In this document: in pieces, positions 6,326 to 64,000 of the stretch
Layout: every line of letters begins with the position of its first letter
Position numbering within the stretch: position 1 is the stretch's first letter
Assembly: GCA_946625575.1 (NCBI GenBank)
Contig: CAMOTD010000006.1
Coordinates: 16,251-80,250 of the forward strand
DNA: 64,000 nt
Direction of reading: 5' to 3'
Origin: an uncultured Clostridia bacterium
GTDB taxonomy: Bacteria > Bacillota > Clostridia > Christensenellales > CAG-138
Program-made: the position numbers and the translations under genes
Notes under the pieces: model-generated
Databases searched by the model: none
Seen by the model: the letters and a program-made list of their open reading frames with translations, nothing else
What the model was told of the DNA's origin: nothing

Positions 6326-6955
6326 TCAGCCTTCTTTTTCCTTGAGCATATCCTTCGTCTTCATGAGGCGGGTCAAATTCCCGCGCTCGTTTTCGTCGAG
6401 CTTCATGGAGATATCGTGGATGGCGTCCTTGAGCTGCGGTATCATTACGTACTCCAGCGCGTTGACACGGCGGCGGGTCTTCTCGATCTCGTCCGCAAGA
6501 AGATTGCAGGTTTTTTCCACCTCGGCAAGCTCGATGAGAAGCGGCATCAGCTCGGAGAATTTTGCGACGGCGTTATCGAGCTGGGACGAAGTGCCGAGCA
6601 CGCCGTAGGGCAGCCCGTGCGATTCGGTGGGGATGTAATTGAGGCGCGGCACCTCCGTCGAGAGCACCTTCGCGCTTTCGACGCCTATCCTCGCGGCAGA
6701 AGCGGGATAGCAGAGCGCCTCCTCCACGGCGGCGGAGCTCATGGTCGCCTTTGCGATGACGAAGCTTTGCATCGACTCCGCCATGAGCTTTTCGACGCGC
6801 TCCCTCAGCTCCTTGTTGCGGCGCACGTACGTGATGAAGCGGCGCACCGTTTCATCGCGCTTGTCTTTCATCAGCTTGTGTCCCCTCGTCGCAGTAACGA
6901 GCCTCTTTTTTAGGCGGCTCATTTCCATTCGGGTGGGCTTATAAGAAATTGCCAT
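6326..6955 (-). CDS. atpD: V/A-type ATP synthase subunit D
   Basis: The N-terminus PTRMEMSRLKKRLVTATRGHKLMKDKRDE is typical of V-type subunit D. It is the last gene of the operon. Confidence 0.9.
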   Translation of the reverse strand: MAISYKPTRMEMSRLKKRLVTATRGHKLMKDKRDETVRRFITYVRRNKELRERVEKLMAESMQSFVIAKATMSSAAVEEALCYPASAARIGVESAKVLSTEVPRLNYIPTESHGLPYGVLGTSSQLDNAVAKFSELMPLLIELAEVEKTCNLLADEIEKTRRRVNALEYVMIPQLKDAIHDISMKLDENERGNLTRLMKTKDMLKEKEG

Positions 6956-6971: not shown

Positions 6972-8354
6972 TTACTGCTCTTTCTTTTCGTAATACTTGT
7001 CGAGATATTCGTCGCGGATACGCCTCAGTTCCGACCTCGGGAGTATCCTCAAAAGCTCCCAGCCGATGTCGAGGGTCTCCTCCACGGAGCGGTTGGTGTA
7101 ATACCCCTGGGAGACGTATTTCGCCTCGAACTCGTCGGAGAATTTGGCATAGAGCTTATCCACGTCGGAAAGCGCGGCGTCGCCCAGTATGACGGCGAGC
7201 TCCTTCGCTTCCTTGCCGCGCGAGTATGCGGCGAAGAGCTGGTTCATCGTGTCGGCGTGATCCTCGCGCGTTTTGCCCTTGCCTATGCCCTTATCCTTCA
7301 AACGCGAAAGCGACGGCAGAACGTTTACGGGCGGGGTTATGCCCTTCCTGTTGAGCTCCCTTGAAAGGATTATCTGCCCCTCGGTGATGTAGCCGGTAAG
7401 GTCGGGGATCGGGTGGGTGATATCGTCCTCCGGCATGGAGAGTATCGGTATCATCGTGATGGAGCCCTTCGAGCCCTTTATCCTGCCTGCGCGCTCATAC
7501 ATGGTGGCAAGGTCGGTATAAAGGTAGCCGGGATAGCCGCGGCGGCCGGGGACCTCCTTGCGGGCGGCTGAGATCTCGCGCAGCGCCTCCGCATAATTGG
7601 TGATATCCGTGATTATTACGAGCACGTGCATGCCGAGGTCGTAAGCCAGATACTCCGCGGCGGTTATCGCCATGCGCGGGGTGGCAATACGCTCGATGGC
7701 GGGGTCGTTCGCAAGGTTGACGAACGTGACCGTCCTTTCGATCGCGCCTGTCTTTTTGAAATCGTTTATAAAGTAATCGGCTTCCTCGAACGTGATGCCG
7801 ACGGCGGCGAACACGACGGCGAACGGCTCGTTCGTGCCCCTGACCTTCGCCTGCCTCGCTATCTGGGCGGCGAACTGTGCGTGAGGAAGACCGGAGCCGG
7901 AGAACACGGGCAGCTTTTGCCCGCGGACAAGCGTGTTCAAGCCGTCGATCGCGGATACGCCGGTCTGTATGAACTCATTGGGATAATCCCTCGCGGCGGG
8001 ATTCATCGGCGAGCCGTTGATATCCAGCATCTTTTCGGGGATGAGCGGCGCGCCGCCGTCCTTTGGGCGGCCCATACCGTCGAATACTCGCCCGAGCATA
8101 TCTGGCGCGACGGCGAGCTCAATGCTGTGACCGAGGAATTTAGCGCGGGAGTCGGATATCTTCAGACCCTGCGAGCCCTCGAAGAGCTGCACGAGCGCCT
8201 TCGACCCGTTTACCTCCAGCACCTTGCCGCGGCGGATATCGGAGCCGTCGGTCCTTTTGATCTCGACAAGCTCGTCGTATTTTACGCCGTCAACGCCGTC
8301 CACCATTACGAGCGGACCGACTACCTCGCGGATCGTTGTGTATTCCTTACGCAT
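6972..8354 (-). CDS. atpB: V/A-type ATP synthase subunit B
   Basis: 460 aa with typical non-catalytic B-subunit sequence ([29 protein letters not shown]). Confidence 0.92.
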
Positions 8355-10125
8355 TTTCGTTACCCTCTGTCAATTTTCTGACCTCATTCGCGAGCTCGGC
8401 GGAAAGCTCTCTCGCGAGCTGTTTGTGATCCTTCTCCTGGCAGTACTTGAATCTGCCGAGCTTTTCCCTGACGGGCATCGCAGCGAGCTTTTCGAACGGA
8501 GCGCCGGCTTCGAGCGCGGCGGAACCCCTGTCGTAGAACTCGAGCAGGAGCTTCAAAAGCGCATGCTGCTTATCCGGGGAGGTGTAGGTATCGGTCGCGT
8601 CGAACGCGTTCTGATGGAGATAGTCCTCGCGGATGCTCCTCGCGGTCTCGAGCTTCAGACGGTCGCGCTTCGAGAGCGCGTCGATACCGACGAGAGAAAC
8701 GATCTCGGAAAGCTCCGCCTCCTCCTGCAGGAGGGTCATCGCCCTGGTGACGCATTCGCCCCAGTCCTCCGCGATGTTCGAATCGAACCACGGCTCGAGC
8801 CTGTCGGTGTAGAGCGAGTAGCTCGAGAGCCAGTCAATCGCGGGGAAGTGCCTCGCGTAGGCGAGCTTTGCGGAAAGTCCCCAGAACACCTTTACGATGC
8901 GGAGCGTCGCCTGTGAGACCGGCTCCGAAATATCGCCGCCGGGAGGCGATACGGCGCCGATCGCGGAGATCGCGCCCTTCCTGCCCTCCGAACCGATGGT
9001 GAGCACCTGACCCGCCCTCTCGTAGAACTCGGCAAGGCGGCTCGAAAGATAAGCGGGGTAGCCTTCTTCGCCGGGCATTTCCTCAAGACGGCCGCTCATT
9101 TCACGGAGCGCCTCCGCCCAGCGGGATGTGGAATCCGCCATTATTGCGACTTTATAGCCCATATCGCGATAATACTCCGCGATCGTGATGCCCGTGTAAA
9201 TGGACGCCTCACGCGCGGCGACGGGCATATCGGAGGTGTTCGCGATAAGCACCGTGCGCTTCATCAGCGAGAGCCCCGTCCTCGGATCGACGAGCTCGGG
9301 GAACTCGGTAAGAACGTCCGTCATCTCGTTTCCGCGCTCGCCGCAGCCGACGTAGACGATGATATCCGCGTCCGCCCATTTGGCGAGCTGATGCTGAACG
9401 ACCGTCTTGCCGCTGCCGAAGGGGCCGGGGACCGCCGCGACGCCGCCCTTCGCGATGGGGAAGAACGTGTCGATAACGCGCTGGCCGGTGATCATCGGCT
9501 CATTGGGAGGGAGCTTTTCCTGATACGGTCTGCCCTTTCGGACTGGCCATTTCTGCGCCATGGTAAGCTCCTCCTCGCCTTTTTCACCCTCTATGACGGC
9601 GATGGCGTCGTGGATCTTGTAGAGCCCTTCGGGAACGAGGCGCTTCAAAACGCCCGTCTTTCCCGGGGGGACCATTATGTAGTGCTTGACCGCGCCGGTC
9701 TCCTGCACGAAGCCGAGCACGTCGCCGCCGACAAGCTTTTTGCCGACCTCTGCCGTCGGCTGGAAATTCCAGACCTTTTCAGGATCGAGCGCGGGAGCGG
9801 CAATGCCCCTGGTGATCCTTGAACCGGCGGACTCGAAAAGCACGTTCAAGGGCCTCTGGATACCGTCGTAAATGGACTCGATAAGTCCGGGACCGAGCTC
9901 AACGGAGAGCGGCGCGCCCGTGGGATAAACAGGCTCGCCGGGACCGATGCCGCCCGTTTCCTCGTAGACCTGTATGGAGGCTCTGTCGCCCCTCAATTCA
10001 ATGACCTCGCCTATGAGCTCCTTTTCGGAAACGTGGACGACGTCGTACATCTGCACGCCGCCCATGCCGTCCGCCGTTATGAGCGGACCGGCTACCTTGA
10101 CGATGGTTCCGTGGTTCTGGGTCAT
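8347..10125 (-). CDS. atpA: V/A-type ATP synthase catalytic subunit A
   Basis: Walker A GPFGSGKT, and [11 protein letters not shown] prefer the ATG at 10125 ([14 protein letters not shown]), which has GGAGG 8 nt upstream. The longer track ORF (to 10230) runs into the repeat block. Confidence 0.92.
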
Positions 10126-10246
10126 GGATATGTATCCTCCGTTAGTATTGTTCGTGGTTGGTGTTTTCCGCCCGAACGGCGGCGTGTGAGGCGCCTGGGT
10201 CTGACAGGTCACACTCGTTCGGAAAAGCAAAATGTCCGTTTCATCT

Positions 10247-10430
10247 GCTTCGGGACTTTTGCGGTTTCAGACGGCAAAGCCGTTTTTTTCTTCCGCTTCG
10301 GGACTTTTGCGGTTTCAGACGGCAAAGCCGTTTTTTTCTTCCGCTTCGGGACTTTTGCGGTTTCAGACGGCGAAGCCGCTTTTTTTCTTCCGCTTCGGGA
10401 CTTTTGCGGTTTCAGACGGCAAAGCCGGCT
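10247..10430. repeat. head-to-tail tandem repeat, about 48-bp unit, 3 full copies plus 1 truncated
   Basis: The unit GCTTCGGGACTTTTGCGGTTTCAGACGGCAAAGCCGTTTTTTTCTTCC starts at 10247, 10295, 10343 (49 bp, 2 substitutions) and 10392 (diverges after GCCGG). Each copy carries ACGGC-AAA-GCCGT plus T7 on the + strand. Confidence 0.9.
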
Positions 10431-10431
10431 G

Positions 10432-10632
10432 AAATTTTCGCCTTCCCGCGAAAAAGCAAAATGTCCGAATCTTTAACAGCGGAGCTGTTAAAGTATAATT
10501 TCCGCCTTCCCGCGAAAAAGCAAAATGTCCGAATCTTTAACAGCGGAGCTGTTAAAGTATAATTTCCGCCTTCTCGCGGAAAAGCAAAATGTCCGAATCT
10601 TTAACGGCTGAGAGCCGTTAAAGTAAAATATC
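10432..10632. repeat. head-to-tail tandem repeat, 64-bp unit, 3 copies, each with a 10-bp-stem hairpin
   Basis: CCTTC(C/T)CGCG starts at 10441, 10505 and 10569. The hairpin CTTTAACAGC-GGA-GCTGTTAAAG lies at 10471-10493 and 10535-10557. The variant CTTTAACGGC-TGAGA-GCCGTTAAAG lies at 10599-10623 and overlaps the atpF stop codon. Confidence 0.9.
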
Positions 10633-10929
10633 CGCCCCGATCGCTTTCTCGACGTTCTCCCTCACGCTGCGCATTGCGGCGCCGGTCGTGCCCCTGCTGT
10701 CGGGGATGGGGATTATTGCGGGGAAGGCGCTCGACCTGTACTTTGAAACGGTCTGCGCCGCCGCCTCGAACACGGGCTCGGTTATGAATATCACCTTTGT
10801 GTTCCCGGCGGCAAGCTTATCTATCAGCTTGCCCGCGGCATGTCCGTCGGTCTCGAAATACACGTCGAGCCCTGCGGCTCTTCCGAGCAGCACGGAATCC
10901 TTATCGCCTATCATTGCTATATCAGCCAT
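10618..10929 (-). CDS. atpF: V/A-type ATP synthase subunit F
   Basis: 103 aa. The sequence IAMIGDKDSVLLGRAAGLDVY...VIFITE is typical of subunit F. It overlaps the atpC stop. Confidence 0.85.
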   Translation of the reverse strand: MADIAMIGDKDSVLLGRAAGLDVYFETDGHAAGKLIDKLAAGNTKVIFITEPVFEAAAQTVSKYRSSAFPAIIPIPDSRGTTGAAMRSVRENVEKAIGADILL

Positions 10930-11920
10930 AAAGCGCCATGCTCCTTTCCTCGATCACGGACGCGGGAATGCCGCTCCTCTTTGCGGTCAATATGAGCCTT
11001 ACGACCTCCGCCTCCCTCTCCCTTGCGAGGAGATACCCAACTATGGGCGCGGGGGTGTCGATATCGGATCTGTTGCCGGAGGCGAGCCCGATAAGATACT
11101 CGTCCCTTGCCTTTTCGACGGGGGCAACGGCGCCCGTCTTCAAATACTCGCTGAACGCGGCGCGGATGCGCTCCTTTACTTCGCTGATCTCAAGCGGGCT
11201 TTTGAGCAGAGCCGCCGCCTTCTCCTTCGAATCGGAAAGCGCCTCGCGAAAGCGCTTAAGCTCCGCCGCCGAGTATTCGCCCGTGGGAAGCAGCCTTTCG
11301 TCCGGCACGTCACGGAGTATCGCGATCAGGTTCGTAAAATCGGCGAGCGCGGAAAAGTACTTCTTTACAAACTGGTTTTTGAGCCCCATGGCGTATTTCA
11401 TATACGCGCAGTCAAGCTTTACCGAGACCGCCTGCGGATCGGCGGAACGGTACGTGTCGACGTCAAGCTCCTCGAGCGCCGCGGCGATCGTCTTCGGCAG
11501 CATGGAATAATCGCCCTTTTTGACGGCGGCTTTAAGCTTCTCCCCGTCATAGATACCGCCGAAGCCGAGCTCCGCCTTGTCAAGCTCCGCGCCCAAGAGA
11601 CGCAGCTTGTAGAGAAGCTTTATGTTCGTGATATCATGCCGCATACGGAAGACCTCGAGCACCGGGGCAAAGTGCCTCGGCATGAGCTCCTCCGTTACAG
11701 AGTATGCCTCGCCGAGCTCCGCGCGGATCATCGCCTCCGCCCGATCCGGCTCATCGGGATCGGACTTCATGCCATAGCCGGACTCCGAGAGTATCTTCAA
11801 ACACTCCTCGTAGTCCTTCGCGGCGGCAAGGCGGGAGACCGTCTCTCTCGTAAGGAGGCGTTTCTCTATAACGCGCAGTCTCGCTATGCTGTTTATAAGG
11901 CTTTCAGCCATAGTTCGCAC
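10922..11920 (-). CDS. atpC: V/A-type ATP synthase subunit C (d-type)
   Basis: 332 aa helical protein in the canonical operon position between E and F. Confidence 0.8.
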   Translation of the reverse strand: MRTMAESLINSIARLRVIEKRLLTRETVSRLAAAKDYEECLKILSESGYGMKSDPDEPDRAEAMIRAELGEAYSVTEELMPRHFAPVLEVFRMRHDITNIKLLYKLRLLGAELDKAELGFGGIYDGEKLKAAVKKGDYSMLPKTIAAALEELDVDTYRSADPQAVSVKLDCAYMKYAMGLKNQFVKKYFSALADFTNLIAILRDVPDERLLPTGEYSAAELKRFREALSDSKEKAAALLKSPLEISEVKERIRAAFSEYLKTGAVAPVEKARDEYLIGLASGNRSDIDTPAPIVGYLLAREREAEVVRLILTAKRSGIPASVIEERSMALYG

Positions 11921-11925
11921 CTTGA

Positions 11926-12504
11926 TCAGTTAAACAGAAGCTCCGCGGCCTTTGCGGAGGTAAGCTGGCGAACTTCCTCCATGAGCGCGTCGAAGGAGCA
12001 GTTCTTGACGTAGTTCGAGCCCTTAATTATAAACCCGTCGGTTATCGAGGGATCGGCTTCGCCCACGCTGACGCCGGAAACGGCGCCGCCTTCGATCAGC
12101 GCGCGGACGGTCTCCAGATCCTTTTCGGCGGGGCAGACGGTCTCGCCGCCCTCGCACTCGCGCTCCAAGAGGCGCTTTAACAGGGCTGCGCGCCCCTCGC
12201 CGTCAAGCGCGGCGATGCGCTTATATGCCTTCGCATACGCCTCGTCAATGAGGGCGCGCTTGCGGACGAGCAGACGCTTCCTGCCCGTGAGCTCGGCGTT
12301 CGTCCTTGCCGTGGCGAGCGTGAGCTCCCTCTGGCGGGACGCCTTTTGGGTAAATTCGTCACGCAGGGCTTCCTTATCCGCCTCGAGCTTCTGCCTGACG
12401 GCGTTGATATCCTCCGTCGACTTCCACTCGATAGCCGCGGCGTCGGCGCGCGCTTCCTCCATTATGCTGGCTATGAGCTTTTCGGCTCCGTTATTGGTAT
12501 CCAT
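11926..12504 (-). CDS. atpE: V/A-type ATP synthase subunit E
   Basis: 192 aa with a charged coiled-coil N-terminus and a globular C-terminus, in the canonical position after K. Confidence 0.8.
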   Translation of the reverse strand: MDTNNGAEKLIASIMEEARADAAAIEWKSTEDINAVRQKLEADKEALRDEFTQKASRQRELTLATARTNAELTGRKRLLVRKRALIDEAYAKAYKRIAALDGEGRAALLKRLLERECEGGETVCPAEKDLETVRALIEGGAVSGVSVGEADPSITDGFIIKGSNYVKNCSFDALMEEVRQLTSAKAAELLFN

Positions 12505-12513
12505 ATTTCACTA

Positions 12514-13107
12514 TCAGGCGTTTACGGGAACGCCGACGACCATCAGTATGGAAATGATCAGCGCAAGTATCGCGTAGAGCTCTACCATGATGGCGAAGGT
12601 GATACCCATGCCGCCGTTGCCCTGCTTTGCCACGATGCCGATGCCCGCGCAGCAGACGCGGGACTGGAAGTAGGCAGAAACGAGACCGACGACGCCGATG
12701 GGAAGACTCGCATAGAAGAAGCTGCGTCCGAGCTCCGTGGAGAGCTGCATAACACTGCCGTTCAGTATGCCGCTGAACACCGCGATGAACATCGCGATAA
12801 CGAAGCCGTAAAGACCCTGCGTTGCGGGAAGAAGCTCAAAAATCAGGCAGCTGCCGCCCTTTTCGGGATCCTCCGCAGACACGCCCGCCGCTGCGCGGCC
12901 TGCCATGCCAACGCCGAGAGCGGAACCGATGCCGGGGAGTATCATGGCGACGCAGACCGCTATCGCAGCCCAGATATAGCCCGAGGGACCCTTGGGGGCT
13001 TCCGCGCCGATGGTGGGTGCGCCCTCTTCCGCAAATACGGCGCCGCACACGGTGAGCGCGAGCAGGGCAATGATTACGACGGCTGCAAACTTCTTGATCT
13101 TTTTCAT
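12514..13107 (-). CDS. atpK: V/A-type ATP synthase proteolipid subunit K, with extra N-terminal hydrophobic segment
   Basis: LLPATQGLYGFVIAMF and MVELYAILALIISILMV closely resemble, from memory, Enterococcus hirae NtpK (LLPGTQGLYGFVIAF, MVETYAILGFVISFLLV). About 40 additional N-terminal residues include a signal-like helix. Confidence 0.85.
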   Translation of the reverse strand: MKKIKKFAAVVIIALLALTVCGAVFAEEGAPTIGAEAPKGPSGYIWAAIAVCVAMILPGIGSALGVGMAGRAAAGVSAEDPEKGGSCLIFELLPATQGLYGFVIAMFIAVFSGILNGSVMQLSTELGRSFFYASLPIGVVGLVSAYFQSRVCCAGIGIVAKQGNGGMGITFAIMVELYAILALIISILMVVGVPVNA

Positions 13108-13133: not shown

Positions 13134-15077
13134 TTATTTGACGTTATTGTATTTTGTATCTATACCGAGGGGGCTGAAAAGCTTGCCGCCCGGAGTATAA
13201 AAGCGGTTATAGTATTCGATGAACTGAAGCCTCGCGCAGTGTATGAACGCGCCGAGGGCGTTTATCGCCACGCAGAACACGTGCAGTATAACGAGGAGCA
13301 CCGCCGCGACGAGGAAGCTTACGACTCCGCCGACCACGGGAATGCCCTTCAGCATATCCTTCGCGATGCCGGCGACCAGGTTGAACGCGCTGCCCATAGC
13401 GCCGGTCGCAAGACCCAGGGCGAACACACGCGAATAGCTCAGCACGTCGGAGAGGAAGCCGGTGATGTCATACAGCTTGCCGAGTCCGCCTATCACGCGG
13501 CCGACGCCCTTCTTTGCCCTGCCGCCGAATCCGACGAGGAGGATCACTCCCACACCGATGAGCCCGAAGGCGATATAGCGAAGGTTCCCCTTGAGCAGGA
13601 ACACGAGCCCCGCTCCGGCGAATATGATCAGCCAGGAGCCGATATCGAACAGCGCCGTCTGCCAGTCGCCCCGTTTAATATGAAGGACTATCGACACGAT
13701 CATTCCGACTATGATCTGCCCGAAGCCGAGCGCGCAGTACGCGATGATCGCGGTCATCTGATCCTTCATCGGATCGATCAGCGGGAAGGGGAAGCTCTCG
13801 CCGAAGAGGTCATACCAGTTCATGCCGAAGCAGGTGCCAGCCAAAAGACCGAATACCATGGTGGAAAGCCCGCCCCAGAAGAGTATCTTCGCGACCTGTT
13901 CCGTGCCCTTCTTCGGCTTCTTGAGCTTCAGGAAGAGCGCTGCGCCGATGCTCATAACAAGGCCGTAGCCCGTATCGCCCATCATGAGTCCGAAGAACAG
14001 GAGATAGAACGGCGTCATGACGACGGTGGGATCGAAGCCCCTCGGGTCGGGGGGCGAATACATATTCGTAATAAACTCGAACGGAGCGAAGAACTTGCTG
14101 TTCTTGCAGTACGTGGGCGGCTGCTCTTCGTCATAAGGATCGCGGATCTCAAGATAATGGACTCCCGCGTTCTCGTTAACGATCGCTTCAAGCTTATCCG
14201 CCTCATCCGAGCGGACCCAGCCGTTAAGCAGGAAGGTCTCCCTCGTGGCGAAAAGCTCGCATCTCGCCTGCGCGCGGTTCTGCTCGATAAGCGCGCCGTC
14301 AAGACCTTTTTTGAGCTCCTCCGCCTTTTCTCCGAGCGCCGCGATCGCCTTTGAAAGCTCTTCGTTTTTCAGTTCGAGCGAAGCCGCCTCGCTCTCGAGC
14401 AGAGCGTAATTATCCGCCGCGAGCCCCTCGTATTCGGGGAGCGAAGCCTCCGAAAAGCCGGCTGAATGGAGGCTCGCAAGAGTCTCCTCCCGCGAGGCGT
14501 TCGGTATCGCGGCGAGTATCGGCGTCTTCTGCCCCTCGGTGGGATACGCCTCGTAAACCACGCCCGCTTCATCAAGCGCGCCGAGCTTTTCGGGCTTTAT
14601 GAGCCCCAGCACAAAGCCCGCCGTTTTTGTGGGACGGATCTCGTCGAGGGGGATAGAAACGCCCTTGAACGGACGAAGCGCCTTCAGCGCCGCGGCGGTC
14701 TTCTCCTTGTCGTTCTTGACCTGATTGAGCTCCTTCTGGAGCCCTTCAAGCTCCTCGGCTATCACGATCGCGCCGGGCACGGACCCGATCAGCTCATCCT
14801 CCGAGCACTCGGGCGGCGCTTCAAGCAGACCGGGCTTTTTAAGATACGGATTAAGGCGACTTAAAGCCGCCTTGATACGCTGAACGGTATTGTTTTTTTC
14901 GGCAAGCTCGCTCTCGCAGCCGGACCTGAAAAGACCCGAAGCCTCGCCTAAAGAGGCGGGGCCTTCAGCCTCCGAGCGCTCTATCTGAACTACCCCGTTA
15001 TTCTGAAGCGCTTTCATCACGCGCCGTTCGTCCGTCTTGAGACCGAACAGCGATATGTGCTTCATAGGTACGATCAT
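13134..15077 (-). CDS. atpI: V/A-type ATP synthase subunit I (a-type stator)
   Basis: 647 aa. The cytoplasmic N-terminal half is followed by multiple C-terminal TM helices. MKHISLFGL is a typical N-terminus. Confidence 0.88.
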   Translation of the reverse strand: MIVPMKHISLFGLKTDERRVMKALQNNGVVQIERSEAEGPASLGEASGLFRSGCESELAEKNNTVQRIKAALSRLNPYLKKPGLLEAPPECSEDELIGSVPGAIVIAEELEGLQKELNQVKNDKEKTAAALKALRPFKGVSIPLDEIRPTKTAGFVLGLIKPEKLGALDEAGVVYEAYPTEGQKTPILAAIPNASREETLASLHSAGFSEASLPEYEGLAADNYALLESEAASLELKNEELSKAIAALGEKAEELKKGLDGALIEQNRAQARCELFATRETFLLNGWVRSDEADKLEAIVNENAGVHYLEIRDPYDEEQPPTYCKNSKFFAPFEFITNMYSPPDPRGFDPTVVMTPFYLLFFGLMMGDTGYGLVMSIGAALFLKLKKPKKGTEQVAKILFWGGLSTMVFGLLAGTCFGMNWYDLFGESFPFPLIDPMKDQMTAIIAYCALGFGQIIVGMIVSIVLHIKRGDWQTALFDIGSWLIIFAGAGLVFLLKGNLRYIAFGLIGVGVILLVGFGGRAKKGVGRVIGGLGKLYDITGFLSDVLSYSRVFALGLATGAMGSAFNLVAGIAKDMLKGIPVVGGVVSFLVAAVLLVILHVFCVAINALGAFIHCARLQFIEYYNRFYTPGGKLFSPLGIDTKYNNVK

Positions 15078-15092: not shown

Positions 15093-15407
15093 TCAGAATT
15101 CCTTTAGAATATAGTTTACGATCGCTTCCTCCGCCTCGGGAAGCCTGGCAGACGCGCCGGTGATGAGGGCTTCCGCCTCCTCCGCGCTCTTCACAAGCAG
15201 CCTCTCGGCTTCGCCGGAGGCTTCCTTCTCCGCCATGGCGGCGGCAAGGGCGAGCCCCGCCTTGGCCTCCTCCCGCGCGATCTTGAGGGAAGCGGCGGCT
15301 TCATCCTCCGCGGCGGCAAGGGCGTTCCTTGCGGTCTCCTGCGCGTTCCTGCGCAGCGCTTCGGCGTCAGCCTCGGCGGCTGCGATACGCTCAATTATCG
15401 TAGGCAT
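15093..15407 (-). CDS. V/A-type ATP synthase small stalk subunit (G/H-like)
   Basis: 104-aa Ala/Glu-rich helical protein. It is the first gene of the operon, 15 nt upstream of atpI. Confidence 0.6.
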   Translation of the reverse strand: MPTIIERIAAAEADAEALRRNAQETARNALAAAEDEAAASLKIAREEAKAGLALAAAMAEKEASGEAERLLVKSAEEAEALITGASARLPEAEEAIVNYILKEF

Positions 15408-34285: not shown

Positions 34286-34504
34286 ATGTGCAACGGTATG
34301 TGCAACTCGAACTTCGGCGATAACTGGTGGTGGATCATTATCCTTCTGATCCTGTTCGGCGGCAATTCCTGCGGCTGTGAGAACAACAACGGCTGCGGCT
34401 GCGGCAACAACAATTGGCTGCTCATCCTCATCATCGCCCTTCTCGGCGGCTGGGGCGGCTGCGGCTGCGAGAACAACAACAACGGCTGCGGCTGCGGCTG
34501 CTGA
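34286..34504 (+). CDS. 72-aa Cys/Gly/Asn-rich, internally duplicated double-TM mini-protein (YjcZ-like?)
   Basis: AAGGAGG (34271-34277) lies 8 nt before the ATG. The sequence is MCNGMCNSNFGDN-WWWIIILLILFGG-NSCGCENNNGCGCGNNN-WLLILIIALLGG-WGGCGCENNNNGCGCGC. A terminator follows directly. Confidence 0.6.
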   Translation: MCNGMCNSNFGDNWWWIIILLILFGGNSCGCENNNGCGCGNNNWLLILIIALLGGWGGCGCENNNNGCGCGC

Positions 34505-42036: not shown

Positions 42037-43623
42037 TTGGTTCTGATGCAGAGAAACGAAGTTGTAACGGATCGTCCCGTATCCGGCACGCCCGCCGTAA
42101 GGATGGAGCATATTACGAAGGTTTTCGGCTCCGTCATTGCGAACGACGACGTAACGCTGGATATCTTCCGGGGCGAGATACTTTCCCTGCTGGGGGAGAA
42201 CGGCAGCGGAAAGACCACTCTTATGAATATGCTCTCGGGCATCTACTTTCCCGACGCGGGCACTGTCTCGGTCGACGGCAGACCCGTTTCTATCAAGTCG
42301 CCGAAGGACGCCTTCGATCTGCATATAGGCATGATCCACCAGCACTTCAAGCTGGTCGATATACTGACCGCGGCGGAGAATATCGTGCTCGGTCTCAATG
42401 AGAGCTATATGCTCAATCTGAAGCGCGTGCATGCCGAGGTGACCAATATCTGCAGTAAATACGGATTCGACCTCGATCCCGACAAGAAGGTCTACGATAT
42501 GTCCGTATCCGAAAAGCAGACGCTTGAGATCATCAAGGTGCTGTACCGCGGCGCGGACATACTGATACTGGACGAGCCCACCGCCGTGCTCACCCCGCAG
42601 GAGACGGAAAAGCTTTTCGGCGTCATGCGAAACATGAAGGCGGACGGCAAAGCCATCGTAATTATCACGCACAAGCTGCATGAGGTCATGTCCATATCCG
42701 ACCGCGTGGCGGTGCTCCGCAAGGGCCGCTACGTGGGCGATATCGCCACCTCCCAAACCGATCCGCAGCAGCTGACCGACATGATGGTCGGGCACGCGGT
42801 AAAGCTGAATATTGAAAGACCGGAGCCGAAGGATCTTCGCGAATGCCTTAAGGTGGAAAACCTTTCCGTCGTGGATATCGACGGCATAAGGAAGCTCGAC
42901 AAGGTATCGTTCACCGCGTACGGCGGCGAGATACTCGGCGTCGCCGGCGTCGCCGGCAGCGGTCAGAAGGAGCTTCTGGAGGTCATCGCGGGACTTCAGC
43001 CCGCACAGAGGGGCAGCAGCGTGATCTACACCGACCGGAACGGCAAGGTCTCCTCCCTCATCGGTAAGAGCCCGCTTGAGATAAAGAAGCTCGGCGTGCA
43101 TCTTGCCTTCGTGCCGGAGGACAGGCTCGGCATGGGTCTCGTCGGCAACCTCGATATAGCGGACAATATGCTTATCCGCACCTATACCGAGGGCAGCGGA
43201 ATTTTCGTCAATATGAAGCGCCCGCGCAAGCTCGCGCAGGATATCGTTAAGGAGTTCGAGGTAGTCACCCCCGGCATCACCACCCCCGTAAGGAAGCTCT
43301 CCGGCGGCAACGTGCAGAAGGTGCTCGTCGGGCGAGAGATATCGGGCGACCCCTCCCTGATGATGAGCGCATACGCCGTTCGCGGACTCGACATCAACAC
43401 TTCGTACACCATATACCGCCTTATGAACGAGCAGAAGGCGCGCGGCACGGCGGTCATATACGTGGGCGAGGATCTCGATGTGCTGCTCGAGCTGTGCGAC
43501 AGGATCATGGTGCTCTGCGGCGGCAGGCTGAGCGGCATCGTCGACGGGCGCACCGCCACAAAGGAGCAGGTCGGTCTTATGATGACGCATCTTAACGAAG
43601 CGGGAACGGAGGACGCCGAATGA
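42037..43623 (+). CDS. ABC transporter ATP-binding protein, duplicated ATPase (BMP/sugar type)
   Basis: Two nucleotide-binding domains (GENGSGKTTL; LSGGNVQK). The start is either TTG 42037 or ATG 42046, with AGGAGG at about 42027-42033. Confidence 0.85.
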   Translation: MVLMQRNEVVTDRPVSGTPAVRMEHITKVFGSVIANDDVTLDIFRGEILSLLGENGSGKTTLMNMLSGIYFPDAGTVSVDGRPVSIKSPKDAFDLHIGMIHQHFKLVDILTAAENIVLGLNESYMLNLKRVHAEVTNICSKYGFDLDPDKKVYDMSVSEKQTLEIIKVLYRGADILILDEPTAVLTPQETEKLFGVMRNMKADGKAIVIITHKLHEVMSISDRVAVLRKGRYVGDIATSQTDPQQLTDMMVGHAVKLNIERPEPKDLRECLKVENLSVVDIDGIRKLDKVSFTAYGGEILGVAGVAGSGQKELLEVIAGLQPAQRGSSVIYTDRNGKVSSLIGKSPLEIKKLGVHLAFVPEDRLGMGLVGNLDIADNMLIRTYTEGSGIFVNMKRPRKLAQDIVKEFEVVTPGITTPVRKLSGGNVQKVLVGREISGDPSLMMSAYAVRGLDINTSYTIYRLMNEQKARGTAVIYVGEDLDVLLELCDRIMVLCGGRLSGIVDGRTATKEQVGLMMTHLNEAGTEDAE

Positions 43624-46637: not shown

Positions 46638-49205
46638 ATGAATAAGCGTTTGTTCAGGGTGTTCGCCTCGGCGCTCGCCGTGCTGCTCGTAATGACGGCG
46701 TCCGTGCGTCTTCCGATGCTTGATTCGCACGCGGAAGCAGACGCCGGGCTCACCGTTGACGAGATCACCGAGTACAGCTATGAGGTTACGCCGATACTTG
46801 CGCCGTTCCCCTATTTTATCTACGTTAAGACGGATAACCCCGATCCGGAGAGCTTCATGTTCGTGGATAAGGAAAGCGTGTATTTCGGCGATGACGCGAC
46901 CGGCTCGATTTCGCTGCCCGGTTCGAGTTACGGTTCGACGATCAGCACAGAGACCGATCCCGGTACGTATTACGTTTCCCCCTATGATTACGCGGACGTC
47001 GAATACGAAAACACGTCCACCCGCCGTGTCAACGGGGGCTATATTTTCCGTTTTGACGGCGCCATACCCGACGGAGGAGAGCTTGTACTGAAAGCCCGCA
47101 CCTCCCAGGGAACGAGCCTTCTCAACCATACCTATCAGGAGACCGACGTTACGATCCCCTGCCCTCAATTCAAAACGAGGCAGGACTATCTGATCGACAC
47201 GTATTCTTCGGATACCCAGTCTTTCTTTGAGAAGATGGACGCCATACAGGCGGGGCTGAACGCGATCGCCATTTATCCGCGCAGTGTTTACGACAGTTCC
47301 AGCCCGAACACCGTGACGCCTTACCCGCTGCTCGCGAGCTCGCGCTATCCGGAGCTTTCGCTCAACGAGCATTATCCCATGTACAACCTTTCAACCGGCG
47401 GAACGCTGCTCTATAACGCATATCCGTTCGTGCTCGATTCGCTTGGCGTGCCCGGCACGATGGCAAACGTCGCGCTGATGCTCGAACCGGATGCGCAGAT
47501 CAGCTACGGCAGCACTCACGCATTCGTCAACGTCACCTTCGGCGACGAAACGCATTCCTACGGCGGCGCAGGCAGGGGCGGCAACGATCCCCTTTTCACC
47601 GAGGACGTTGACAAGACCTTCACCTTCAGCGGCGCAGAAAACGATATGGGCACTCACGGCGGAGTTGAAAGCTTCGGCGTGCAGTTCGACGCATATGCCG
47701 AAGCCGCTGCGGCGGCAATGGAGCCGTACCGCGATCTTATCGCCGGCGCCACGTTCAAGCAGACGATAGGCGCGACCGGCGGCACGTGGATCCGCATTGG
47801 CACCGAGGGCAGCTTCAACTTCGGCACGTCTTTCTCTTACGCGGTCCCGCACGGCGGCTGGGTCGAGTTCCCGTCCCAGACATGGATCGACGGCAGGTTC
47901 ATCAGCCAATATGAGAACATCGTCCTCCGCGCGAAATTCAGCGATTATCCCACCGCAAGGATACTGCTCCACGACGTGACCTACACGGGCAACGACGGGC
48001 AGGAGCATACCCAGGACGTTATCTATACTTATGTAAGCTCCGCGGACGAATGGCAGGCGCTGTATTACTACGGGCCCAACCTCAAGCTGACCCGCGCCCA
48101 GGTCGAGGAGATCGTCGCTTCCTGGACGGAGGGCAGCCGTCTTCCCGAAGATGGTCTCATCTACGACGGCAGGGAGTACCCCGGAACGCCCTTCCATAAC
48201 ACCCTTGTCGAGGGGATCGAAGCGCCGGAGACATTTACCGCGGTGCTCGGCCGTTCGTACAGGCTGCCCGTCACGGTGCTTCCCGAGGACGCGACGTATC
48301 CCCAGGTCACAATGACCTCCACCGACTCCTCCGTCGTTTACTGCGGAAACGGCGCGTACTTCGGCGCGAATGCTGTCGGCACAGCCACCCTCACGATCAC
48401 CACGAACGACGGCGGCTTCTCAAAGACCTGCGTCGTAACGGTAGTGCCCGATAATGAGCTCAACGAGGCGTTGAACATCGAGGGCGGCGAGCTCGATTTC
48501 ACCCGCGGCGGCGAAAAGCTCTTCACCGTTGAGGAATGCGGCGACAGGCTCGTCGCAAAGCAGTCCGGCATTGTGGATTACTATGACTCCAGCATCGATA
48601 CAACGCTTGAGCTGAACGCCGGCGACAGGCTGTGCTTCGATTACAGGATCGGCACGGCGGATCCCTCCGATACCCTTTACGTCAGCATGGGCGGATACTA
48701 CTATATGTTCCGCGCGTATGGCAGCGATGCGTGGAGAGTCAATAATATCACCGCCCAGCAGGCAGGCACTTTTAACGTGACGTGGAACTTTATAGGCAAA
48801 GCCGACGGCTCCTTCTGTATGCTGGATAACGTGAGGATCGTCCGCAGCGGCGAACCCAATCCCACGCAGATAGTCGATCCGACGCCCACTCCCACGCCGA
48901 CTCCGACGCCGACTTCCACTCCTACACCTACACCTACTCCGACGCCCACACCGACTCCGACTCCCACGCCGACTCCAACTCCGACGCCTACGCCGACTCC
49001 GATCCCGACCGGAGCGCCGCTGCTCGGAGACGCCAACGGCGACGGTTCGGTTGGAGCTGACGACGCGCTCCTGATCCTCAGGTACTCGCTCGACATAATC
49101 GGGAGCGACGGGCTCGTGCTTGAAAACTGCGATATGAATTCGGACGGCGAGATCGACGCCTCTGACGCGCTGCTTCTTTTAAGACTTGTGATGCAGATCG
49201 GATAA
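46638..49205 (+). CDS. large secreted protein with Big_2-like Ig domain, Pro-Thr linker and C-terminal dockerin
   Basis: Signal peptide. Big_2-like VTVLPEDATYPQVTMTSTDSSVV...GTATLTITTNDGGFSKTCVVTV. (PT)n linker. Dockerin GDANGDGSVGADDALLILRY / CDMNSDGEIDASDALLLLRL. Confidence 0.7.
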   Translation: MNKRLFRVFASALAVLLVMTASVRLPMLDSHAEADAGLTVDEITEYSYEVTPILAPFPYFIYVKTDNPDPESFMFVDKESVYFGDDATGSISLPGSSYGSTISTETDPGTYYVSPYDYADVEYENTSTRRVNGGYIFRFDGAIPDGGELVLKARTSQGTSLLNHTYQETDVTIPCPQFKTRQDYLIDTYSSDTQSFFEKMDAIQAGLNAIAIYPRSVYDSSSPNTVTPYPLLASSRYPELSLNEHYPMYNLSTGGTLLYNAYPFVLDSLGVPGTMANVALMLEPDAQISYGSTHAFVNVTFGDETHSYGGAGRGGNDPLFTEDVDKTFTFSGAENDMGTHGGVESFGVQFDAYAEAAAAAMEPYRDLIAGATFKQTIGATGGTWIRIGTEGSFNFGTSFSYAVPHGGWVEFPSQTWIDGRFISQYENIVLRAKFSDYPTARILLHDVTYTGNDGQEHTQDVIYTYVSSADEWQALYYYGPNLKLTRAQVEEIVASWTEGSRLPEDGLIYDGREYPGTPFHNTLVEGIEAPETFTAVLGRSYRLPVTVLPEDATYPQVTMTSTDSSVVYCGNGAYFGANAVGTATLTITTNDGGFSKTCVVTVVPDNELNEALNIEGGELDFTRGGEKLFTVEECGDRLVAKQSGIVDYYDSSIDTTLELNAGDRLCFDYRIGTADPSDTLYVSMGGYYYMFRAYGSDAWRVNNITAQQAGTFNVTWNFIGKADGSFCMLDNVRIVRSGEPNPTQIVDPTPTPTPTPTPTSTPTPTPTPTPTPTPTPTPTPTPTPTPTPIPTGAPLLGDANGDGSVGADDALLILRYSLDIIGSDGLVLENCDMNSDGEIDASDALLLLRLVMQIG

Positions 49206-63258: not shown

Positions 63259-64000
63259 TCAACCGTTCTCTTCGCACGACAATTCCAAAAGCTGCAGCTC
63301 GTCTCCGAGATCGCGAAGGACCGCTTTGCCGTGCGCGATCAGTTTGTACCAGTCCTTTGTCTCCCTGTCTGTTCTATCGGCGTCCTGGAGCGACATCATG
63401 GGCATGATCGGCACGTGCCTCTCCGCTTCCCCAATGCCCCATGCCTCGGGATTGATCTGGTATAATCTGAAATACAGAGTGCAGGTTTCCTCGTCTACGC
63501 TTTCCACAAGCGCAAAGCGGATCGGGAATGAGTACTTTTCGGTCGGATAAGGGGGAACGTTCCAAAAGCAGCCGTCACGGAAAAAGCAGTTAAAGCTCTC
63601 GTTTTCATCGAGCATTATGCTGTAATCCTCCCGATCGGGAGAAATGGTTTTCCCAAAGAAATAGGTCAGCGTTTCATTGACCTGTTCAAGCGTCAGCGTT
63701 CGGCAGGAAACGCCGTTGTCCTGCCGTTCAATGACGGAATCCTTATCGTTCGCTCTTCTGTACCCAAAGACAAATCTTATCAGCTCGGCGTCCTCATCCA
63801 GATCGGTCTTCGTGTCCATGATGTTCTGCTGAACTATGTAGGTTACGAAACGATTCACCCGAATCTGATTCTCGCTGATCTCCCATGCGGGAGGCTTTTG
63901 CGTTTCCTCTGGAACGTCGGTCGTCTCCGCCTGTTCGGTCACCGTCGGTTCGGTCACCGTCGGTTCGGTCACCGTCTGCGCGGGAGCAGCTCCCCGCTTG
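63259..64000 (-). CDS. hypothetical protein, N-terminus probably beyond window edge
   Basis: The frame stays open upstream of the GTG at 63972 to the window end (..AAPAQT-VTEPTVTEPTVTEQ). There is a TEPTV low-complexity linker followed by a globular domain of about 200 aa that I do not recognise. Confidence 0.4.
   Translation of the reverse strand, partial: KRGAAPAQTVTEPTVTEPTVTEQAETTDVPEETQKPPAWEISENQIRVNRFVTYIVQQNIMDTKTDLDEDAELIRFVFGYRRANDKDSVIERQDNGVSCRTLTLEQVNETLTYFFGKTISPDREDYSIMLDENESFNCFFRDGCFWNVPPYPTEKYSFPIRFALVESVDEETCTLYFRLYQINPEAWGIGEAERHVPIMPMMSLQDADRTDRETKDWYKLIAHGKAVLRDLGDELQLLELSCEENG

Follow-up and report, generated by a model that had tools for sequence, protein, structure and literature searches.

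A structured, strain-variable minisatellite between atpF and atpA in a clostridial V-ATPase operon

Several kinds of sequence found between bacterial genes resemble the array of tandem repeats that separates atpF from atpA in the V-ATPase operon of an uncultured Clostridia bacterium (GTDB lineage Christensenellales; CAG-138). The array lies in a 64,000-nt stretch of contig CAMOTD010000006.1 (assembly GCA_946625575.1, positions 16,251 to 80,250, forward strand). This whole stretch is called the window, and coordinates count from its first letter. The operon runs on the minus strand, which is the sense strand in what follows. We are highly confident that the array is a local, structured, strain-variable minisatellite. 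Its best explanation as a whole, in which our confidence is middling, is a structured intercistronic RNA element that local amplification has turned into a modular minisatellite differing among strains.

Protective 3' hairpins and structured 5' ends shape the differential decay of operon segments (PMC5927463). As in the malE-malF REP case and the examples of Dar and Sorek 2018 (PMC5927463), a stable hairpin is located directly at the 3' end of the upstream cistron, at a position conserved in relatives, and sits between genes needed in different amounts. Unlike those hairpins, the one found here takes in the stop codon, with a predicted three-way junction behind it. The whole element is also tandemly amplified and strain-variable.

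Pneumococcal BOX elements (boxA-boxB(n)-boxC), which are regarded as mobile, occur in more than 100 dispersed copies per genome and have target-site duplications as well as terminal inverted repeats (Croucher et al. 2011, PMC3049150). The array shares their modular composition from structured units, with a middle module (45-48 bp) present in zero to several tandem copies that vary among strains. Like BOX, it is presumably co-transcribed with neighbouring genes, and it has a predicted RNA fold. The array differs from BOX in being found at one locus only and in having a unit that contains the end of the adjacent gene.

MIRUs are present at many loci and carry a short open reading frame (ORF) coupled to the downstream start codon (PMC12548453, PMC3184786). 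Like these variable number tandem repeats (MIRU-VNTR; PMC12548453, PMC3184786), the array consists of tandem 40-100 bp units between operon genes, with a copy number that is polymorphic among strains. Unlike them, it has no coupled ORF, the lengths of its 64-nt units and of the 77-nt units in a sister species are not divisible by three, and it was found at no further locus.

The ATPC RNA motif in Rfam is a conserved RNA structure of unknown function between genes of cyanobacterial F-ATPase operons, and it is not known to occur in tandem copies. It resembles the array as a conserved RNA between ATP synthase genes, but operon type, phylum and structure differ. The array itself has no Rfam match: a permissive scan of 9500-11500 yields sub-threshold matches of 18 bits at best (E >1), and the whole 64-kb window has no match at gathering level. 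Both intergenic VNTRs made from structured units and protective hairpins between cistrons are already known as kinds. What is new here is that the two are combined at one locus within a V-ATPase operon, that fragments of a predicted three-way-junction RNA are amplified, that a sister species shows amplification in parallel, and that no Rfam family matches.

Repeat array and predicted RNA fold

A gap of 492 nt (10126-10617) lies between atpF and atpA, whereas the remaining junctions of the operon are overlaps or gaps of at most 26 nt. The original prediction had singled out this spacer as exceptional and described two head-to-tail repeat families in it, both of which are recovered by Tandem Repeats Finder (TRF) as a 48-bp unit repeated 3.9 times at 10239-10427 (96% matches) and a 64-bp unit repeated 3.2 times at 10433-10636 (93% matches). 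A repeat search places the starts of the 48-nt copies at 10235, 10283, 10331 and 10380 (spacing 48, 48 and 49) and those of the 64-nt copies at 10433, 10497 and 10561. Such head-to-tail copies of a 10-100 bp unit are what defines a VNTR or minisatellite.

Perfect hairpins had also been read in the 64-bp units, and an inverted-repeat search finds them as CTTTAACAGC/GCTGTTAAAG at 10471-10493 and 10535-10557 and as CTTTAACGGCT/AGCCGTTAAAG at 10599-10623. Likewise, a 17-nt box, GAAAAGCAAAATGTCCG, occurs four times as described, at 10222, 10451, 10515 and 10579. When as many as 3 mismatches are allowed, the box pattern has 5 matches in the window, compared to 0.25 expected by chance; the fifth, at 43160, has 3 mismatches.

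On the sense strand, the spacer can be parsed into five modules. H is the stop-codon hairpin, X is ATTCGGACATTTTGCTTTT, S is a small hairpin (UUUUCGC-GGGAAG-GCGGAAA), B is the 48-nt unit, and U is a unique segment of 90 nt ahead of atpA. Each B unit is made of a small hairpin CGGCUUUGCCG, a core GCAAAAGUCCCGAA that is complementary to X, and an A-rich linker GGAAGAAAAAAAG. The features of the window, in the direction of transcription, are as follows.

10599..10623, minus strand: H1, 11-bp hairpin CUUUAACGGCU/AGCCGUUAAAG with the atpF stop codon in its 5' arm (inverted repeat, RNAfold, relatives)
10435..10598, minus strand: rest of the 64-nt 'A' array (TRF, repeat search, module parsing)
10598-10580, minus strand: X1
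10583-10563, minus strand: S1 hairpin
10557-10535, minus strand: H2
10534-10516, minus strand: X2
10519-10499, minus strand: S2
10493-10471, minus strand: H3
10470-10452, minus strand: X3
about 10455-10435, minus strand: S3
10394..10470, minus strand: complete predicted three-way-junction module (RNAfold, covariance model R1, covariation)
10239..10427, minus strand: 48-nt 'B' array (TRF, repeat search; reproduced in L067)
10427-10380, minus strand: B1
10379-10331, minus strand: B2, 49 nt
10330-10283, minus strand: B3
10282-10242, minus strand: B4, truncated
10223..10241, minus strand: terminal X box AAACGGACAUUUUGCUUUU (pattern search, module parsing)
10126..10222, minus strand: unique segment U, directly ahead of atpA (module parsing of alleles)

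The ground plan on the sense strand consists of H (10-11 bp, with the last atpF codons and the stop in its 5' arm), X, S and the unique 90-nt leader with a strong Shine-Dalgarno (SD) sequence. In many alleles, X-S folds together with the first 48-nt unit to form a three-way junction, and RNA folding predicts that the array units are fragments of one structured RNA in which the stop-codon hairpin is followed by this junction. Helix P1 pairs X3 (UUCGGAC.UUUUGC) with the core of the first B unit (GCAAAAGU.CCGAA). P2 is the S3 hairpin, UUUCCGC with GCGGAAA around the loop GGGAAG, and P3 pairs UUUCAG.CGGC with GCCG.CUGAAA. RNAfold gives the same junction for X-S-first B (87 nt) in seven of eight distinct variants from the species of the window. 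Covariance model (CM) R1, which was built from units of that species only, matches 10388-10474 with 114 bits. No variation is seen in the purine-rich P2 loop (GRGARG) or in UUUUGC/GCAAAA. The terminal X box can pair with the B4 core, and this B4-core:X hairpin is present in the minimum free energy fold.

The compensatory A:T to G:C change that had been reported between H copies is real and preserves pairing, and one copy in L007/L008 has a G.U intermediate on the operon sense strand (L numbers denote the sequences compared). Other wobbles on this strand are a U.G in P2 of the sister species and a U.G in P1 of some units from the species of the window. Because these wobbles lie on the operon sense strand, RNA from that strand is favoured. 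The exception is a C.A mismatch in P2 of L001.

The strand matters for a claim that each 48-bp unit carries a terminator-like motif directed against the operon. According to a consensus scan, ACGGC-AAA-GCCGT followed by T7 on the plus strand is intact in two B units, is a variant in the third and is absent from the fourth. On this basis, the 48-bp units could be small intrinsic plus-strand terminators that form a barrier to operon-opposed transcription. The scan does flag GACGGC-AAA-GCCGTTT and then T7 in three of the four units (one a variant), as well as the H palindromes, and these B units fit the terminator consensus. However, the T7 runs are not conserved, since the homologous units of the sister species have no hairpin with T-run on the antisense strand. 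The wobbles favour sense RNA, repeat-free alleles exist, and the single promoter-like site (10601-10629, plus strand, 9/12 match, formed by the H1 palindrome) is located at the upstream end of the spacer and points into atpF. An antisense barrier is scarcely plausible.

The sense strand does not have the form of an intrinsic terminator either: H is followed by AUUCGGACA, with the U runs 10 nt further on, and only weak S hairpins are flagged on this strand. A consensus scan of the spacer finds no internal sigma-70 promoter for atpABD on the sense strand. Its only sense-strand ORF of at least 20 aa (10209-10325, TTG start, 38 aa) reaches neither atpF nor atpA, and the spacer holds no MIRU-type or other small ORFs coupled to the flanking genes.

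Variation among strains and sister species

An exact look-up of the AtpF protein yields more than 20 conspecific contigs from various samples and assemblers, whose labels suggest ruminant gut metagenomes. Their flanks differ from the window by 0-11 bases per 1200 nt on each side; for example, those of contig DGHD01000019.1 (GCA_002392505.1) are identical to it (0 mismatches in 2400 nt). Within these flanks, which are more than 99% identical, spacers range from 132 nt, with no repeats, to 561 nt, and one more record, available without DNA sequence, implies 662 nt. At least eight distinct module orders are present. The suggestion that the array is a VNTR of variable copy number is borne out, and the proposal that the 48-bp array was inserted into a unit of the 64-bp family fits the repeat-free H-X-U alleles.

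HXU (no repeats): L006, L009, L017, L021, L024
HXBHXU: L001
HXBBXU: L002, L022
HXBBHXU: L004, L005, L018
HXBBBHXU: L003, L025
HXBHXBBXU: L007, L008
HXHXHXBBBBXU: window
HXHXHXBBBBBXU: L019

Segment U is found in all conspecific contigs that reach it and carries isolated single-nucleotide polymorphisms (SNPs) only. The last X box is followed by either of two tails (window 10223-10250 and the L017/L021 spacers). The shorter, the 9-nt CCGAACGAG, lets UUCGGA pair with UCCGAA, and the longer is an S-like hairpin of 29 nt, TCGCGAGTAAGCGAGGATGACTGATGAGG. Each is found in alleles with repeats and in alleles that lack them, so recombination between alleles is implied. Equal counts of X boxes and B cores were considered as a rule. 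This holds for the window (4:4), L002 and L007 and fails for L001, L003 and L019.

Repeat mis-assembly could produce or distort such an array, although this would touch the exact copy numbers rather than the existence of the array. Assemblies tend to break at this locus, and the copy numbers in published ones are unreliable. Contigs shorter than 2 kb make up 18 of the 28 index blocks with this AtpF, and many end at the array. Runs of N lie within the array in L020 (spacer) and in L023/L066 (B array), and the L067 contig ends within the A array. Yet the same junction types and orders of unit SNPs come from independent samples and assemblers. L067, an independent assembly, has the four B units of the window with identical SNP order and 49/48/48 spacing, and L023, with flanks identical to the window, has three 64-bp A units. 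The S-B, B-B, B-H and B-X junctions recur across independent samples and are not products of collapse, which could not create the distinct B-H, B-X and S-B junction sequences. Repeat-free alleles are also present in Logan contigs, which are short k-mer assemblies that would break at repeats instead of bridging them. An artefact is highly improbable.

Relatives were collected by a search for AtpF homologues and a look-up of the encoding contigs. Their spacers are listed by AtpF identity.

79-84%: spacer 36-51 nt, small hairpin at most
85%: spacer 70 nt
90% (L028): spacer 109-110 nt, single 19-bp hairpin (-36 kcal/mol, z = -7.7), no junction
88% (L048, L060/L061, L062): spacers 189, 265 and 419 nt, 12-bp stop-codon hairpin and 1, 2 and 4 tandem 77-nt units, respectively

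Relatives retain a hairpin of unrelated sequence that covers or directly follows the atpF stop, with 19 bp in L028, 12 bp in L048 and 6+4 bp in L034. In L028 its 5' arm, GAUAUACUCUUCUGAGUCC, is formed by the last atpF codons and the stop. Such a hairpin, also present in L060, has the features of a protective 3' hairpin: it is stable, located at a cistron 3' end and conserved in relatives.

The arrays of the sister species are located at L062 937-1260, L060 1513-1777 and L048 1498-1686. RNAfold predicts the same three-way junction, with differing sequence, for four of its five distinct units. Internal units of this species carry CCGAAAAAC in place of CCGCAAAAC and have one P1 pair broken. CM R1 recognises the sister units with E 2e-9 to 2e-5 and has no match in the other relatives. 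The units of the two species were aligned under guidance of the CM, because MAFFT shifts P3 and the 3' half of P1 by one column. In this alignment, 96% of cells are standard pairs, whereas slid controls are 30-58% paired. Nine of the 30 pairs are changed on both sides between the species, and the covariation score of 0.229 (two lineages, with an alignment fitted to the model) compares to 0.084 in shuffles, none of 500 reaching it. The original prediction had argued that the structure is under selection and proposed a comparison of spacers across relatives. Both the stop-codon hairpin that relatives keep with a different sequence and the covarying junction agree with the argument, and the comparison finds variable copy number (1, 2 or 4 sister units) together with covarying pairs.

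These data bear on a neutral origin, in which slippage or unequal crossing-over in a hairpin-rich spacer made copies that have no role and at most the ancestral stop-codon hairpin is functional. The repeat-free alleles within nearly identical flanks are readily explained in this way, as are the highly variable module order and the lack of a junction in L028. Moreover, identity among the copies of an array is 96-100%, a sign of recent expansion. A neutral array accounts less well for a three-way junction kept between two species with 9 compensated pairs, for the recurrence of tandem amplification of the same element in the sister species, and for an additional 500 nt of structured RNA placed centrally in a core energy operon, before the cistrons that are most in demand. 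We judge this explanation rather unlikely.

A conserved, covarying three-way junction upstream of atpA, tandem copies of it in two species, and the invariant P2 loop and UUUUGC/GCAAAA could also belong to a cis-regulatory aptamer or protein-binding leader that controls atpABD translation, with tandem copies providing cooperativity or titration. The junction has the multi-helix fold with covariation of a riboswitch, the covariation coming from two lineages and a model-fitted alignment. On the other hand, several conspecific alleles lack it, as does L028, so that the universal presence expected of a riboswitch is missing, and no expression platform is predicted. It lies about 100-350 nt from the SD sequence, to which neither the junction nor an alternative structure is predicted to pair. 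Conserved positions are mostly in helices rather than in the junctions, and Rfam has no match. Such a leader is improbable.

Local origin and searches for further copies

The boundary of the 64-nt unit, GGCGGAAATTATACTTTAAC, extends about 20 nt into atpF, whose end is GGCGGATATTTTACTTTAAC. The 64-nt unit is therefore a tandem copy of some 20 nt from the end of atpF together with H, X and S. A boundary inside atpF implies a local origin and not an insertion of foreign DNA.

The possibility of a REP-like dispersed family had been raised, and the searches speak against it. No further copies of any module are found in the 64-kb window by pattern or by CM R1, whose best other match there has E = 2.3. 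A 20-mer from the B core is confined, in a scan of JGI metagenomes, to one contig, which is the atp locus itself. Three scans of viral contigs give no match. These searches covered less than the full genome of the organism, and a family with fewer than one copy per 100 kb could escape them. Many copies at unrelated loci, the mark of a dispersed repeat, were not found in the searches run.

A GTDB scan with a 20-mer from the X box has 7 matches in Gastranaerophilales, Vampirovibrio and one Nitrosomaritimum metagenome-assembled genome (MAG), all of them coding coincidences (GFGHFAF motif) in phyla unrelated to this organism's. The 20-mer, GATTCGGACATTTTGCTTTT, occurs with similar flanks in L010, L011 and L013-L016, which are Gastranaerophilales/Vampirovibrio MAGs and two 'uncultured bacterium' MAGs. 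Read as codons, it gives G-F-G-H-F-A-F, a conserved protein motif with no relation to the repeat.

A small non-autonomous mobile or dispersed repeat (BOX-, REP/BIME-, MITE- or MIRU-like) might nevertheless have landed in the spacer and then expanded. The modular A(n)-B(n) layout with its variable middle module resembles pneumococcal BOX (PMC3049150), the P1 arms can be read as inverted repeats like the terminal ones of such elements, and presence of the junction varies between alleles and species. Against this stand the lack of a second copy in the window and in the JGI, GTDB and viral scans, where the X-box matches are coincidental, and an A unit that includes the atpF 3' end and arose in place. 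The outer part of P1 also differs between species with compensation, unlike a sequence-specific transposase end. A comparison of L028 (empty) with L048 (one unit) shows no target-site duplication, although these two species are too divergent for the empty site to be compared cleanly. Mobile origin is very improbable.

The B unit was also considered as an inverted copy of the X-S part of the A unit. This candidate was rejected, as the local alignment is marginal and 62 of 2000 shuffles reach its score. The X box and B core resemble inverted copies because they are the two strands of helix P1. For the same reason, the CM scores the reverse strand of the junction weakly.

A possible role in the V-ATPase operon

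The array separates the genes of the operon into two groups, with atpI to atpF upstream and atpA, atpB and atpD downstream.

13134-15077, minus strand: atpI (Pfam)
12514-13107, minus strand: atpK (Pfam)
11926-12504, minus strand: atpE (Pfam)
10922-11920, minus strand: atpC (Pfam)
10618-10929, minus strand: atpF, V-ATPase subunit F, 103 aa (Pfam PF01990, E 8e-20; ORF list)
10620-10618, minus strand: atpF stop codon TAA
8347-10125, minus strand: atpA, V-ATPase catalytic subunit A, 592 aa (PF00006, PF16886, PF22919, PF02874; ATG 10125-10123)
6972-8354, minus strand: atpB (Pfam)
6326-6955, minus strand: atpD (Pfam)

Segment U includes the atpA SD sequence GGAGG (10140-10136), and relatives conserve a ACGGAGGA...TCC ATG motif ahead of atpA. 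The ribosome-binding region on the minus strand (10123-10140) reads ACGGAGGAUACAUAUCC-AUG, and in predicted folds GGAU of the SD can pair with AUCC directly 5' of the atpA start in a 4-bp mini-hairpin. Most of the relatives examined (L028, L034, L048, L055 and L063) share the GGAGGA...UCC-AUG pattern, which L040 and L049 lack.

An ORF of 104 aa (15093-15407, minus strand) lies upstream of atpI with a 15-nt gap and has no Pfam match. From its position, it may be a small stator subunit (G/H-like), the ninth operon gene counted in the original prediction. The mechanical ORF of atpC has 332 aa from a GTG, and other assemblies have 329 aa. Its true start is probably 9 nt downstream of the GTG, because the 332-aa sequence is absent from the protein collection.

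Elsewhere in the window, a long imperfect hexamer/24-mer tandem repeat (TCCGAC about 21 times, 74-77% matches) at 48878-49009 is possibly a coding Ser/Asp-type repeat. Short CGGCTG-type tandem repeats of 6/9/24 nt are present at 34369-34501, and a 15-nt unit is repeated 4.3 times at 63915-63976. No tRNA or tmRNA is found within the 64 kb.

The mechanism that we propose has two parts. In the first, unequal recombination or slippage between short shared boxes would have multiplied [atpF 3' end-H-X-S] into the 64-nt units and [P3 tip-B core-A-rich linker] into the 48-nt units, and would also have removed units again. In the second, the element would act as an RNA-level boundary between the I-K-E-C-F and A-B-D segments of the mRNA. 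An endonuclease might cut in the single-stranded A/U-rich linkers, after which H would shield the atpI-K-E-C-F segment from 3'-to-5' exonucleases. The downstream structures and the free-standing SD sequence would allow atpA-B-D to be stabilised and translated independently, in keeping with the higher stoichiometry of these subunits (3:3 versus 1 for F). Differences in copy number are presumably in large part tolerated variation, but they may tune the balance between the segments. This stability or processing mechanism is a tentative proposal that falls somewhat short of even confidence.

A number of observations weigh against the amplified-element explanation as a whole. Five alleles (L006, L009, L017, L021 and L024) have no B unit and hence no three-way junction, and L028, another sister species, has the hairpin only. 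It follows that the junction and the array are dispensable. The covariation stems from only two lineages and an alignment fitted to the model, and the repeat copies are paralogues that are open to homogenisation by gene conversion. Copy numbers derive from short-read assemblies, and their exact values need caution. Finally, the stop-codon hairpin could equally affect termination or translation instead of decay.

A bolder form of the proposal is that the hairpin and junction are an undescribed, functional cis-acting RNA of the V-ATPase operon in a clade of rumen Clostridia that sets the ratio of A, B and D to I, K, E, C and F. Copy number changed by recombination would then be a heritable and reversible knob for tuning strains. 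We consider this quite unlikely.

The array has a practical use as a strain marker for this organism, and it explains why assemblies break at the locus, with contigs below 2 kb and N gaps in scaffolds. If it is not functional, it is a clean case of a hairpin-rich spacer that grew from ~40 to >500 nt within a narrow clade. If it is functional, it would add an RNA motif that is so far confined to a few uncultured rumen species. A core energy-conserving operon would then be tunable through the number of copies of a structured RNA module within it, linking minisatellite dynamics to subunit stoichiometry.

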